Virus record (IMG/VR): IMGVR_UViG_2880372215_000004
DNA length: 64,000 nucleotides
Direction: 5' to 3' (one strand)
From: a virus
Lineage: Duplodnaviria > Heunggongvirae > Uroviricota > Caudoviricetes
The position numbers and the translations under genes were made by a program. Position 1 is the first letter of the stretch, and the number at the start of each line of letters is the position of its first letter. Positions 13,087 to 17,516 of the stretch are shown piece after piece. The notes below the pieces were generated by a model that had not been told where the DNA came from, made no database searches, and saw nothing but the letters and a program-made list of their open reading frames with translations.

Positions 13087-13454
13087 CCTGGCCTGAAGCA
13101 TTCACAACGGTAGGAATTGCGATGGCGGTGGCGCTGGTTGTGTATTCGATTTGCCGCTGGGGATAAAAACGATTTGCGGGAAAAGGATAGTTAAGTAGAA
13201 TTGCTGCGGGTGCTTGAGGCTATCTGCCTTGGGCATGAACACCAAAGGCAGATAGAGAAAAACCCACCCGACTATAAATCAAAGTGTATTACCCCCATTT
13301 GTTGGACGATGAAATGGGTTTAGTTAACTATGTCGGTATCGACATGACTAAAACAACCTTAAATTGCTCGATTAATAGACAAGTAGTTTTGAAAGATTAA
13401 ATTTATGCGATCCGGTATTTTCAAGGGATAGCCTTTATGAGGTTATCTTATGGG

Positions 13455-13485
13455 GTTAAAACATCAAGAACAGTTGTGTTATAAT
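13455..13485 (+). promoter_or_regulatory. candidate promoter for the methyltransferase: extended -10 TGtTATAAT (13477-13485), weak -35
   Basis: Sequence motif 33 nt upstream of ATG 13518. Confidence 0.4.
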
Positions 13486-13517
13486 ACATAGAAACTAATA
13501 AGAGACGTTGCAACTAT

Positions 13518-14669
13518 ATGAATGTAATAGATTTGTTTTCTGGCGTTGGAGGTCTAAGTCTTGGTGCTGCACGTGCTGGATTTGATGTTAAAATGGCAGT
13601 TGAAATTGATCAACATGCTATTAATACTCACGCAATTAATTTTCCAAGAAGTTTGCACGTCCAAGAAGATGTTTCTTTACTAAATGCAGAAATAATTAAG
13701 GGTTTTTTTAAAAACGATATGCCCATAGATGGTATTATTGGCGGTCCTCCGTGCCAAGGATTTAGTTCAATAGGCAAGGGGAATCCTGATGATAGCAGGA
13801 ATCAGCTTTACATGCATTTCTACCGTTTAGTATCAGAATTACAGCCATTATTCTTTTTGGCAGAAAATGTTCCAGGTATTATGCAAGAGAAATATTCTGG
13901 CATTAGAAATAAAGCATTTAATTTGGTTAGCGGTGATTATGATATTCTTGATCCCATCAAGGTAAAAGCATCTGATTATGGTGCTCCAACTATTCGAACT
14001 AGATATTTTTTTATCGGTGTAAAAAAATCATTGAAGCTTGATATTTCAGATGAAGTATTTATGCCTAAAATGATTGATCCGGTTACTGTAAAAGATGCTT
14101 TGTATGGATTACCAGATATTATCGATGCCAATTGGCAATCAGACTCTGAGAGTTGGCGAACAATTAAAAAAGATCGAAAAGGGGGATTTTATGAAAAATT
14201 ATGGGGGCAGATCCCTCGGAATGTTGGTGATACAGAATCGATCGCTAAGTTAAAAAATAATATCATATCTGGATGTACCGGAACATTACATAGCAAAATC
14301 GTCCAAGAGCGTTATGCTTCCTTATCTTTTGGGGAAACTGATAAAATTTCAAGATCTACAAGATTAGATCCAAATGGTTTTTGCCCGACTTTAAGGGCGG
14401 GAACCGCTAGAGATAAAGGAAGCTTTCAAGCCGTCAGGCCGATCCACCCTTATCATCCAAGAGTGATTACACCAAGAGAAGCTGCTAGATTACAAGGCTT
14501 CCCTGATTGGTTTCGCTTTCATGTAACTAAATGGCATAGTTTCAGACAAATAGGAAATAGCGTGTCACCAATAGTTGCTGAATATATATTAAAGGGGCTG
14601 TACAATTTATTAAATAAAAGAGTACAGCCCGAATATTTAAACCATAATTCTTTGGAAGTTAGGGTATAA
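13518..14669 (+). CDS. DNA (cytosine-5) methyltransferase, 383 aa
   Basis: Motifs DLFSGVGG (I), GGPPCQGFS (IV), ENVPG (VI), RTRYF (VIII), QIGNSV (X); low-GC gene. Confidence 0.9.
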   Translation: MNVIDLFSGVGGLSLGAARAGFDVKMAVEIDQHAINTHAINFPRSLHVQEDVSLLNAEIIKGFFKNDMPIDGIIGGPPCQGFSSIGKGNPDDSRNQLYMHFYRLVSELQPLFFLAENVPGIMQEKYSGIRNKAFNLVSGDYDILDPIKVKASDYGAPTIRTRYFFIGVKKSLKLDISDEVFMPKMIDPVTVKDALYGLPDIIDANWQSDSESWRTIKKDRKGGFYEKLWGQIPRNVGDTESIAKLKNNIISGCTGTLHSKIVQERYASLSFGETDKISRSTRLDPNGFCPTLRAGTARDKGSFQAVRPIHPYHPRVITPREAARLQGFPDWFRFHVTKWHSFRQIGNSVSPIVAEYILKGLYNLLNKRVQPEYLNHNSLEVRV

Positions 14670-15626
14670 CCTATAGTATTTATAATAGTTATCCCGTTCA
14701 TTTTCGTTTAAAGAGAACTCTTCAGCGGCTGCCTGATATGCTTCTTTATCAGGCAGTTTACTATCTAAATTTATCTTTTCTTTAATTGTTAGTGTTGGTA
14801 TTGCTATTTCTTGCACGTCTTCCCAATTTGTTGAATAAAATTGCCAGTTAGAAAGGTCGCATGCCTTAGATAACTCTATATATTCTTGTTCTGAGGAGAA
14901 AAAACCTGATATTGTCAACATGGTATGACTGCCATCATTATATTGATTTAAGGATAATGGGTAATACTGAATCTTATCCTTACGTCCTGAAAGACCACGT
15001 TCTATTGCTGATCTAAAAGCGTTTGTAATAATTCGTATTAAAAGAGCTTTAATCTTACGATCTGAAAGATCTGCATTTGATATCTGAAGATTAAAATCAA
15101 GATACTTTTTCCCAAGCAATGATTTTAATGAATTAATAAAAGCTTCTTTAAAAATATCTAAACTTTCTCCAACTCTACGTTGGTAATAAGAACTAGGATT
15201 TATGGGGAAGGTGACCTTCAAAATATCAAAAGAGCTTACTTTAGTACTTAGTAAGTGTATATCATCTAGATCCGTTTGTATTTTTTTCGGGGAGGCATAG
15301 TCTAACCATGTTATTGATGGTTTAGAAAAACTATAATCAAGAATAAAGTCATGAGCTGATATTAGCTTACAATCAATACAATTATAAGGCAAATTATATT
15401 TTTGTCTGATGTGAGTAGACTCTTGTTCTTCGAGAGAAATCATATCAGAAAGAGCGATACGATTATGCATGATTCTAAAATCTTCAAGCATCGGACCACC
15501 AAAACCTATATATGTATATTCTTGAATATTTAGTCTTTTGCTTAAGAGGTTTAGGCTTTCGAGAAAAATCTCTCTATCAATAGACTTATTATGCCTTAAG
15601 TGATAGGGAATGTATTGTCCAGACAT
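14637..15626 (-). CDS. unknown 329-aa protein, second gene of the ATPase operon; candidate effector or specificity partner
   Basis: ORF 14637..15629; ATG shares one nucleotide with upstream TGA (TGATG); GAGGTG Shine-Dalgarno; 3' end overlaps MTase by 33 nt. Confidence 0.7.
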   Translation of the reverse strand: MSGQYIPYHLRHNKSIDREIFLESLNLLSKRLNIQEYTYIGFGGPMLEDFRIMHNRIALSDMISLEEQESTHIRQKYNLPYNCIDCKLISAHDFILDYSFSKPSITWLDYASPKKIQTDLDDIHLLSTKVSSFDILKVTFPINPSSYYQRRVGESLDIFKEAFINSLKSLLGKKYLDFNLQISNADLSDRKIKALLIRIITNAFRSAIERGLSGRKDKIQYYPLSLNQYNDGSHTMLTISGFFSSEQEYIELSKACDLSNWQFYSTNWEDVQEIAIPTLTIKEKINLDSKLPDKEAYQAAAEEFSLNENERDNYYKYYRLYPNFQRIMV

Positions 15627-17017
15627 CACTTCACCTCTTCAATCACCGTATCAAAGCATTGCATCCCCACATCAGAAGCGCTAGCATCTTCATGTCCAAA
15701 GAAATATTTAGATAAAATTTTAACATCTTCTTTCTCTCTGGTGAAGATTATTCGTACAGTAGAGCTTTTTTTTACTGGGGTAGGCAGCTTAGGTGTATAT
15801 CGCCACTCATTTTTGTTTCTATTAGGGTTGGACCAGTTATTTTTTTTATCTTCTGGAGTTGATTGTGGGGTAATTTCAAATAAAGATTGAGCTTCATGTG
15901 ACTGAGCTGACTTAAGTAATTTTTTCCCTTCTTCAAGATGCTCACCTTTCCACTGATTGGTGAATCGAATAAAATGCATCATCCCTTCAATCATTTTATT
16001 TCGTACATCATTGTACAATGTAGAACTAAGATCGACACCTCGTTTCGTTGTTGTTATTGGTAATTTTTCTGGGTTTTTACTGGTAAAGCGAACAACCCCA
16101 GAAATTGCTATAAATTGGGTATGAAACCTTGGTACATTAGCAAAGCCCCAACCTGTGAGATGTGTCTTATCACAATATAGAACAACGCGGTCATTGCAAA
16201 TGACAGTCCATCCAGCATCATCAGAACTCCTTTTTTCTAAAACATCATCATTGTCATCTTCTAAATTTTTATAGAAGCCAACAACTAAATCGATATCAAC
16301 ATCGTCTATTTTAGCTTTATATATGTATGGTTCTATTTTAGAATGATCAGTTATGATGTTAATCGGATTATGTTCAACAACAACTCCATTTAATTCTATT
16401 TTAAATCCTTTTTGAATAATAAATGACAATGAGTGTTTTATCTGTAAAAAGAGATCAGTAAGATATGTGCTCTCATTAAATTTTTGTGCCACATTAGAAT
16501 GGAGTTTTTTTATCTCTATAGTTGTGCCTGTTGGATTTTTGTTATCATAGTCACTCTCGTGCATCGGTATTTTCCAACCATCACCATCGATCCAATCAGG
16601 TGTTATATCTACAGTGAATGCGCCATCGGGATTATTCGATTGTATTGAGCAATCTCTACCCATTTTAAAAATGGCTCTTTTCATACCAATACCATAGACG
16701 CCAACGGTGCCTTCATTTTCTTCTTCTTTTTGATGGGGTCGTCCCATTTTAAAAGCATATTCTCGGAAGCTTTTAGGGATACCTCCGCAATTGTCTTCTA
16801 TAATAAAGACATCTTTATTAATCGTAAGTTTCGCATAAAATCCTTCATATGGTTTTGAAGTTTTTTTTGTGTCTTTTATTGTACGTAAAGCCCCATCGAC
16901 GCAGTTATCAAGCAGATCAAGTATGGCATCGTTTAAGTCGATATCTCGAGTTAGCATACTTACAAAAAATCTTTTACTAGGACTAAAGTCTGCTGTTGGA
17001 GTCGTGTTCTCAGTCAT
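15626..17017 (-). CDS. GHKL-superfamily (MutL/MORC/Hsp90-like) ATPase domain protein, 463 aa
   Basis: N-terminal Bergerat-fold boxes LLDNCVDGA, EDNCGGIP, GTVGVYGIGMKRA; low GC. Confidence 0.75.
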   Translation of the reverse strand: MTENTTPTADFSPSKRFFVSMLTRDIDLNDAILDLLDNCVDGALRTIKDTKKTSKPYEGFYAKLTINKDVFIIEDNCGGIPKSFREYAFKMGRPHQKEEENEGTVGVYGIGMKRAIFKMGRDCSIQSNNPDGAFTVDITPDWIDGDGWKIPMHESDYDNKNPTGTTIEIKKLHSNVAQKFNESTYLTDLFLQIKHSLSFIIQKGFKIELNGVVVEHNPINIITDHSKIEPYIYKAKIDDVDIDLVVGFYKNLEDDNDDVLEKRSSDDAGWTVICNDRVVLYCDKTHLTGWGFANVPRFHTQFIAISGVVRFTSKNPEKLPITTTKRGVDLSSTLYNDVRNKMIEGMMHFIRFTNQWKGEHLEEGKKLLKSAQSHEAQSLFEITPQSTPEDKKNNWSNPNRNKNEWRYTPKLPTPVKKSSTVRIIFTREKEDVKILSKYFFGHEDASASDVGMQCFDTVIEEVK

Positions 17018-17516
17018 AATTTACTCTCTATGTGTTTGGGAAAATAAATACCTTAAGTGCAAATTGTTGATTTTAAACGCTTCGCATGCGAAGTCAACGA
17101 TGTTAAGAAAGAAAGTGCATGTGATCTAACAGTATGTTTTTAAAAAAAGATTAGCTTTATGAGAATTCAGGACTGAATCCCGTGAGAGGAAAATAACATA
17201 TGTTATTGTTGCATTGCTGTGTTGTTTGGGATTTGTTGCACCATTCTGGCGTTGGTATATCTAGTTCGTTGTTCATTTTGTTAATTGTACAACAGGCAGA
17301 CAACAGAGAGCTTTTAGCCTAGTTAGCTTACGAAATTAAACAACTAAGATTATCGGCGGGGAGTGGTCACCGCTACTCTTTGGCTAGGAGACTTCAACGC
17401 AACCGCACACAACCAGCTTCGGCGGGTTTTGTTTTTTCCTGGCATTCTGGTTTACAATTTGCGTGCTAGCTTGAACAACTGGCATCTGCTGCACTGCGCC
17501 ATCGAGAGATTGAGAA

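Follow-up and report, generated by a model that had tools for sequence, protein, structure and literature searches.

A methylase, ATPase and PF20553 gene cassette replaces the hok/sok core of the Rac-like prophage Sp10

Here we determined the limits, gene content and probable history of an AT-rich block in a 64,000-nt stretch of Caudoviricetes DNA (IMG/VR record IMGVR_UViG_2880372215_000004; hereafter the window, in whose coordinates positions are given). The region matches Escherichia coli O157:H7 at 100% identity (e.g. Sakai, NC_002695.2, and EDL933). Its host element is Sp10, a Rac-like lambdoid prophage of O157:H7 Sakai that is reported to be specific to O157 lineage I (PMC1890555); a Sakai coordinate is approximately 1921608 plus the window position. 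The block carries genes for a C5 DNA methyltransferase (the methylase), a MORC-like GHKL ATPase and a protein of family PF20553, and it occupies the place of the core of a hok/sok toxin-antitoxin (TA) locus. We are highly confident of this anatomy and of the insertion history set out below. In the Sakai annotation the genes are ECs_1953 ("DNA methylase"), ECs_1954 and ECs_1955, the latter two hypothetical; the RefSeq/PGAP labels for ECs_1953-1955 are "DNA cytosine methyltransferase", "O-methyltransferase" and "ATP-binding protein". A preliminary description of the window, made from the sequence alone, had placed the block between Rac-like early genes and a nin/Q region, and this placement is correct: on one side are the replication and early genes of the lambdoid prophage, on the other its nin/Q region. 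Coordinates of the features are collected in Table 1.

The block stands out by its composition. In 400-nt windows the GC content falls from about 0.50 at 12800-13199 to 0.29-0.41 at 13200-17399, and returns to about 0.50 by 17400. Between 13287 and 17393 it is 34.9%, against 49.5% for the whole window, and GC at third codon positions (GC3) is 25-27% in the three island genes against 49-62% in the flanking phage genes. The island is also the lowest-GC 4.1-kb stretch in the window (0.347, compared with 0.509 +/- 0.055 in non-overlapping windows). All three measures agree with the sharp drop between flanks of around 50% reported in the preliminary description. Related prophages do not carry the same genes at the GC content of their surroundings: copies in Klebsiella, Enterobacter, Kluyvera and Cronobacter prophages have 36-38% GC between flanks of 49-57%, and the cassette lies below its flanks in most other hosts as well. 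The limits first proposed for the block, 13170-17340, are not its true edges, which are at 13286|13287 on the left and, as the firm boundary on the right, at 17393|17394.

These limits come from alignment to related prophages that lack the island, the check that the preliminary description had suggested. Homology to three hokD-bearing prophages (L003, L004 and L005; L numbers denote compared loci) ends at 13286, or at 13265 in L004, and restarts at 17394. The relatives have 275-319 bp between the two junction points, and the hokD open reading frame (ORF) lies in this interval. The left flank has 89-93% identity to the DNA that immediately precedes intact hokD in these loci, and the right flank, 17394-17436, is 89-91% identical to the 3' ends of hokD loci. 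Read base by base, the right-flank TCAACGCAACC element is complementary to the 5' GGTGCTTGAGG element, and we take the two to be the fbi and tac elements, respectively, of the hok/sok RNAs. The Rfam model RF01794 scored 50.2 bits on window positions 13208-13332, below its gathering score of 59, and 103.9 bits on the intact L005 locus; this pattern of intact locus against window independently supports the hok identity of the flank. No Hok-coding sequence was found near the island by tblastn with HokD. The Sp10 locus has lost the toxin ORF, mok and most of sok, and is a dead remnant.

Since both firm boundaries carry hok remnants, and since hokD lies between the same points in relatives, the event is a replacement of the hok/sok core and not a simple insertion. 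The plain insertion proposed earlier has to be given up; a hokD/sok core of about 275 bp was lost, as the junction points in relatives enclose hokD. A query of concatenated flanks did not find an exact empty site, and instead recovered many prophages with hokD between the same flanks. A degenerate remnant of the hok 3' end may persist inside the right boundary: local alignment to L003-L005 showed weak collinear similarity to the last hok codons and the 3' untranslated region (UTR) back to 17324, possibly 17290, and AGCTTACGAA at 17324 matches the ...TAYE codons of the hok end. The alignment over 17290-17393 is only marginally above chance, with 8-10 of 1,000 shuffles scoring equally, and blastn of E. 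coli genomes without the island gave no match left of 17394.

The 11-bp inverted repeat that had been assigned to the left edge of the island, with arms CTATCTGCCTT and AAGGCAGATAG at 13220-13230 and 13245-13255, lies exactly where it was reported but is not an island feature. Its arms extend to 14 nt with 93% complementarity, and the corresponding RNA has a folding energy of -29.8 kcal/mol (z = -4.0 relative to shuffled sequences). The hairpin is also present, with compensating differences, in L003-L005, and the first 66-87 nt past 13200, inverted repeat included, occur in about 2,000 E. coli genomes that are free of the island. The repeat belongs to the backbone, as the stem-loop conserved in the 5' leader of hok mRNA. 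Its position, some 30 bp outside the left junction, might suggest a transposon-like or site-specifically integrating element with the repeat as its end. Such an element is extremely improbable: both arms are on one side of the island, within the hok leader of the same island-free genomes, and no matching right-end repeat, target duplication, transposase or integrase accompanies them. We rejected it on the alignments to intact hokD loci, which place the repeat in the hok backbone.

The island contains no transposase, integrase, target-site duplication or terminal repeats. A repeat search at both flanks gave neither flanking direct repeats nor terminal inverted repeats beyond chance AT-rich matches, consistent with the absence of flanking direct repeats noted earlier. 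One direct repeat (D5, at 13392 and 17146, with 16/19 matches) was dismissed as chance in AT-rich DNA by our own estimate. As none of these hallmarks is present, we infer illegitimate (non-site-specific) recombination as the default explanation of the mechanism.

The island core was found in 171 of 5,426 complete E. coli genomes, always at least 99% identical, and 154 of the 171 carriers have the same 24-kb backbone. Two carriers outside O157, O111 RM9322 and swine EL361, share the early region, and only insertion sequence (IS) insertions and more distant mosaicism set them apart. Near-identical copies in 171 genomes on a shared backbone, non-O157 carriers included, indicate one acquisition, after which the island was inherited and spread with Sp10-type prophages. 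In the most likely sequence of events, a self-contained three-gene cassette was acquired horizontally and recombined once into an Sp10-type Rac-like lambdoid prophage, where it overwrote the hokD/sok core, presumably by illegitimate recombination; since then it has travelled with the prophage.

Table 1 Features of the AT-rich block of Sp10 and its junctions, in window coordinates.
Feature	Position	Strand	Basis or remark
Retained 5' part of hokD/sok locus (hok mRNA leader: tac-like GGTGCTTGAGG element and hairpin)	13189..13286	+	backbone
Hok leader stem-loop (11-bp inverted repeat of the preliminary description)	13220..13255	+	backbone hairpin
AT-rich foreign block	13287..17393		4107 bp, 34.9% GC; replaces hok/sok/mok core
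Portable cassette core, outer promoter to outer promoter	13446..17142		nucleotide identity to Klebsiella aerogenes-type copies
Promoter-like site, methylase gene (TTAAAA-18-TATAAT, TG before -10 hexamer)	13456..13485	+	10/12 consensus, best-scoring
C5 DNA methyltransferase gene (ECs_1953)	13518..14669	+	PF00145, E 2.6e-61
Overlap of convergent methylase and PF20553 gene 3' ends	14637..14669		33 bp, ORF coordinates
PF20553 ("Methyltransf_35") protein, 329 aa (ECs_1954)	14637..15626	-	class I S-adenosylmethionine (SAM)-methyltransferase fold
MORC-like GHKL + S5 ATPase, 463 aa (ECs_1955)	15626..17017	-	HATPase_c_3 match
Promoter-like site, ATPase-PF20553 operon (TTGACT-16-TAAAAT)	17070..17097	-	10/12 consensus, inside cassette core
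Possible degenerate remnant of hok 3' coding end/UTR	17290..17393	+	weak evidence
Retained hok 3' end: fbi-like TCAACGCAACC element and terminator hairpin with T-run	17394..17436	+	backbone

The three genes form two convergent units, a plus-strand methylase gene facing a minus-strand operon of the ATPase and then the PF20553 gene, and not the single methylase and ATPase operon of the preliminary description. The ATPase stop codon overlaps the PF20553 start (TGATG), and the pair is translationally coupled. The tail-to-tail overlap of the methylase and PF20553 genes recurs in other loci (L012, L026, L031, L034, L036 and L093-L098). The portable core of the cassette starts and ends at the two best promoter-like sites, one at each outer end and each directed inward; these are consensus matches, and the total number of such sites does not exceed that in shuffles. 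Transcripts of ECs1954 and ECs1955 are present in the Sakai lysogen, and the two drop in parallel when cells enter stationary phase (PMC2241611). O157 papers name ECs1953-1955 only among array probes specific to lineage I or among expressed genes. Between the core and the hok junctions are two further AT-rich segments of 159 bp (13287-13445) and 251 bp (17143-17393), neither of which had a match outside island-bearing E. coli.

The methylase is essentially identical to PDB entry 3G7U and matches the PADLOC MTase_II model (E 2e-98). Its catalytic motifs (FSGVGG, PCQ, ENV and GNS) are intact. The methylome and 5-methylcytosine (5mC) papers examined give no target site for it.

The ATPase carries GHKL motifs I-IV (DLLDNCVD, DNCGG, GTVGVYGIG and G164-T165), invariant in 76 sequences, as is the lysine of its TTTKRG motif. 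An S5-fold transducer follows the GHKL domain, and the best structural matches are MORC3, SMCHD1 and MORC2. The family is large, with more than 5,430 matches. Searches of the PDB with single sequences and profiles of the ATPase and the PF20553 protein returned no significant match apart from weak ones to MORC3/4, and no PF20553 relatives.

The PF20553 protein has a Rossmann-type seven-stranded fold with a terminal beta-hairpin. Its closest folds are class I methyltransferases, the nucleic-acid N-methyltransferases Trm1, RsmD, RlmJ and METTL16; "O-methyltransferase" is the Pfam/PGAP label only. Across 223 diverse sequences the hallmarks of the SAM pocket are kept, with the glycine loop G43 at 94%, motif II E66 at 96% and motif IV D109 at 100%. 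The family also conserves an N-terminal Y8-R11-K14-R18 motif and residues E48, D49, R74, Q75, Y229, D231 and E283. Its 2,124 representatives at 50% identity are all about 330 aa and single-domain, and we found no mention of PF20553 or Methyltransf_35 in the literature. Pfam scans of the C-terminal 134 residues and the middle domain of the ATPase and of the PF20553 C-terminus gave no extra domain. No nuclease domain is detectable in either protein, the three cassette genes include no helicase or nuclease, and neither by fold nor by motif was a cognate restriction endonuclease recognised in the cassette.

We examined the linkage of the three genes in 80 genome loci recovered with the PF20553 profile. 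These loci come from Proteobacteria, Cyanobacteria, Verrucomicrobia, Acidobacteria, Latescibacterota, Poribacteria, Dehalococcoidia, Thermotogae and Lachnospiraceae, with one from a Methanoregulaceae archaeon. The ATPase gene directly precedes the PF20553 gene in 78 of the 80; of the other two, one lies at a contig edge and one has a fragmented ATPase. In 54 loci a C5 methylase gene adjoins the pair (31 upstream and co-directional, 17 convergent as in the window, and 6 downstream and co-directional), and in another 13 it lies within 7 kb. The linked methylases belong to one lineage, 50-64% identical to the window enzyme even in the archaeon and Dehalococcoidia, with an ungapped target recognition domain (TRD). 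All three proteins co-vary (Mantel p 0.001-0.011). Given the order of the pair, the recurrent methylase linkage, the single methylase lineage and the co-variation, the triad appears to be one system rather than a set of chance neighbours. An orphan phage anti-restriction methylase beside an independent ATPase operon would fit the opposite strands and separate promoter-like sites, and orphan methylases are common in prophages. We nevertheless regard such an unrelated pairing as very unlikely, since the triad occurs in at least 54 of 80 loci, in distant phyla and three fixed arrangements, with the same methylase lineage and co-variation.

Two variations on the triad were observed. In seven loci (L024, L025, L028, L029, L033, L035 and L046) the pair-adjacent C5 methylase is directly coupled to a second, longer GHKL ATPase gene (~570-610 aa), and two GHKL-based modules appear to share or flank one methylase there. 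In L021 (Rhodoferax) two complete ATPase-PF20553 pairs stand inverted around one C5 methylase (5616-8005 on the plus strand and 10400-12709 on the minus strand).

The closest copies outside E. coli are in Klebsiella aerogenes-type lambdoid prophages (L093, L095 and L096), with 79-82% nucleotide identity from 13446/13456 to 17104/17142. All three genes are present there in the tail-to-tail arrangement, between the P/DnaT replication genes and a DinI/DUF968 nin-type region. An Enterobacter copy (L097) has about 69% nucleotide identity and lies at a prophage end beside umuDC. In a Cronobacter P2-like prophage, the cassette lies between the portal gene gpQ and gpA, a hotspot shown experimentally to hold anti-phage systems (PMC9122126). 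In the plasmid collection only a 176-bp methylase fragment matched. There are no hok remnants around the Klebsiella and Enterobacter copies, save a 26-nt terminator-like match, so the hok landing site is particular to Sp10. In L093 and L095 this match, of 26-27 nt to a hok-type terminator (GCTTCGGCGGGTTTTGTTTTTTC), is about 550 bp past the ATPase end of the cassette and adjoins dinI. Instead of being left over from hok, it may be a lambdoid terminator or linker that the prophages have in common.

We consider it probable that the cassette is a methylation-gated, restriction-modification (R-M)-like defence of the MORC/paraMORC kind. In the proposed mechanism, the C5 methylase, with its catalytic motifs intact, would mark host and prophage DNA at its target sites, and the coupled ATPase-PF20553 pair would be the anti-invader arm acting on DNA that lacks the methyl mark. 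The PF20553 protein would engage the DNA as reader or effector, and ATP-dependent switching or clamping would fall to the MORC-like GHKL ATPase, which presumably forms a dimeric, ATP-driven clamp on DNA. An R-M-type distinction of self from non-self is suggested by the dedicated C5 methylase, the frequent presence of Vsr, the separately promoted partner operon, the mobility and foreign composition of the cassette, and its occurrence in defence hotspots.

Several observations weigh against this proposal. In 13 of the 80 loci, six of them cyanobacterial, the ATPase-PF20553 pair has no methylase within 7 kb; a lethal restriction arm would not be expected in such a setting, save where an unlinked methylase exists. 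The sequenced-phage collection (50,697 phage records) does not contain the cassette, PADLOC-DB v2.0 has no family for the ATPase or the PF20553 protein at E <= 0.01, PHROGs lists both as of unknown function, and an anti-phage or restriction phenotype of the cassette is not reported in the literature. The general base of GHKL motif I is a Glu in MORC, MutL, GyrB and Hsp90. In the cassette ATPase it is an invariant Asp (D34, 76/76 sequences), and with the catalytic Glu replaced, ATP turnover may be slow or absent; D34 hints at slow hydrolysis or at a pure ATP-binding switch. Among the loci without a C5 methylase within 7 kb are L013, L015-L019 (cyanobacteria), L048 and L059, where either the methylase is unlinked or the pair acts without one. 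Our searches found no literature on bacterial MORC defence, and the EDL933 defence preprints, modularity-network preprints and P2/P4 hotspot papers do not cover the cassette.

Vsr is present in 29 of the 80 loci, which brings in a role in repair or epigenetics. The ATPase and PF20553 protein might serve the methylase, licensing or targeting methylation or acting as MutL-like matchmakers; the matchmaking variant would concern very-short-patch repair of the T:G mismatches that arise from 5mC deamination. In E. coli, Vsr is stimulated by MutL, and matchmaking is a function of GHKL+S5 ATPases (PMC2292703); such an accessory role would also suit a pair with no detectable nuclease in either partner and no methylase in 13 loci. 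Most loci, the window included, lack Vsr, however, and the cassette resides in prophage accessory slots and the P2 defence hotspot with a foreign composition in nearly every host. This location and composition favour a conflict system over housekeeping repair, and we judge the accessory role unlikely.

The fold of the PF20553 protein points to a further possibility, that it is an active second methyltransferase, assisted by the GHKL protein with ATP, in a two-step DNA modification that shields prophage and host DNA from other restriction systems. Its G43 loop, E66 and D109 would fit SAM binding, its closest folds are enzymes that methylate nucleic acids, and temperate phages carry the cassette. 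On the other side, convergent units with separate promoters are the classic layout of modification against restriction, the family occurs mainly on bacterial chromosomes of many phyla with 0 matches in the phage records, and no role of a GHKL+S5 clamp in methyl transfer is known. A protective two-step modification thus seems quite improbable.

The R-M-like defence that we prefer might also work without any nuclease, as an immune or silencing system. A MORC clamp guided by the PF20553 subunit would then sense missing 5-methylcytosine and inactivate the DNA by ATP-driven clamping or compaction, or by a damaging second methylation. We offer this version tentatively and think it rather unlikely. 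If true, prokaryotes would have a counterpart, possibly ancestral, to the way in which MORC proteins and DNA methylation work together in eukaryotes, and PF20553 would gain a new biochemical role.

The nearest described relatives are the paraMORC/MORC systems, in which GHKL ATPases with Dcm-type methylases and Vsr were predicted to form R-M systems (Iyer et al. 2008, PMC2292703). The cassette shares with them the N-terminal GHKL domain and S5-type transducer, the fold matches to MORC3, SMCHD1 and MORC2, the linkage with Dcm-type C5 methylases and Vsr, and a sporadic, laterally mobile distribution. In the paraMORC systems, however, the ATPase is paired with superfamily II (SF-II) helicases and with restriction endonuclease (RE)-fold, HNH, TIR or fused RecB-like nucleases, whereas the cassette lacks helicases and nucleases, and the sole obligate partner of its ATPase is the PF20553 protein with its SAM-methyltransferase fold. 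Classical type II R-M systems that combine a C5 methylase with Vsr (e.g. EcoRII/Dcm/Vsr) resemble the cassette in their intact methylase, tightly linked convergent partner, frequent Vsr, and mobile DNA of foreign composition. The cassette differs from them in having no recognisable endonuclease, with an ATPase and a methyltransferase-fold protein as its partner unit, and its methylase lineage and TRD length are conserved across phyla instead of varying between systems.

Other GHKL-containing systems are more distant. Ambrosia, a validated phage defence, consists of a methylase, a HATPase sensor kinase, REC and HNH (bioRxiv 10.1101/2025.09.30.679545). Like Ambrosia and the HEF_HK/Response_reg_2 elements (PMC8011034), the cassette has a GHKL/HATPase_c_3 protein beside a DNA methylase in an R-M-like cluster; unlike the cassette, both include an HNH nuclease and a response regulator as partner, and the Ambrosia methylase is of the N6-adenine type. 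GHKL-Shedu (VcSduA / paraMORC3; PMC12137116) also has a GHKL ATPase that is predicted to form a dimeric clamp, there in control of an anti-phage effector, but ATPase and DUF4263 PD-(D/E)xK nuclease are fused in one protein and no methylase takes part. As for the site, the island flanks match the hokD hok/sok loci of Qin/Rac-type prophages, with the hok 5' leader hairpin on one side and the 3' fbi/terminator on the other; intact loci of this type differ from the Sp10 locus in having the toxin ORF, mok and all of sok. The cassette resembles prophage morons and P2 gpA-gpQ hotspot cargo (PMC9122126) as an autonomous, AT-rich and independently promoted accessory block, although its landing site in Sp10 is inside a TA locus and not in a described hotspot.

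Other features of the window were noted in passing. A second strongly AT-rich patch, with GC down to 0.32, lies at the right end of Sp10 (48600-50700; Sakai 1970264-1972264) and consists of three tandem type III secretion system (T3SS) effector genes, nleG2-2, nleG6-1 and nleG5-1. An AT-rich patch at 51000-52000 covers the prophage end and uspF. At 11600-12400 the GC content dips less deeply, to 0.38-0.40, over small hypothetical genes (ECs_1949 region), and within this dip RefSeq annotates a frameshifted DUF4014 pseudogene at about 12109-12326. Directly downstream of the Q-like antiterminator gene are tRNA-Ile (CAU) and tRNA-Arg (UCU) genes (18957-19350; Sakai 1940705-1940957), and relatives have up to four tRNAs at this spot.

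As an accessory block of a prophage in a well-studied genome, the island itself is ordinary. New here are its exact junctions, the overwriting of a hok/sok addiction locus, and the identification of a seemingly terminal repeat as the hok hairpin. The cargo matters more: it is a fixed triad, widespread in bacterial phyla and present in one archaeal locus, found in phage defence hotspots and expressed in O157 lysogens, that current catalogues of defence systems do not recognise and that has no visible nuclease. From sequence comparison, it is best read as a widespread, coherent variant of the MORC/paraMORC R-M theme. If defensive, it would add one more family to the R-M-like systems and would open the reading of DNA methylation by MORC-type ATPases to study in E. 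coli, a tractable model for which a structure of the methylase is already available. For the biology of O157, the cassette is predicted to be a lineage I-specific, Sp10-borne source of extra 5mC and may act as a barrier to the entry of phages and plasmids.

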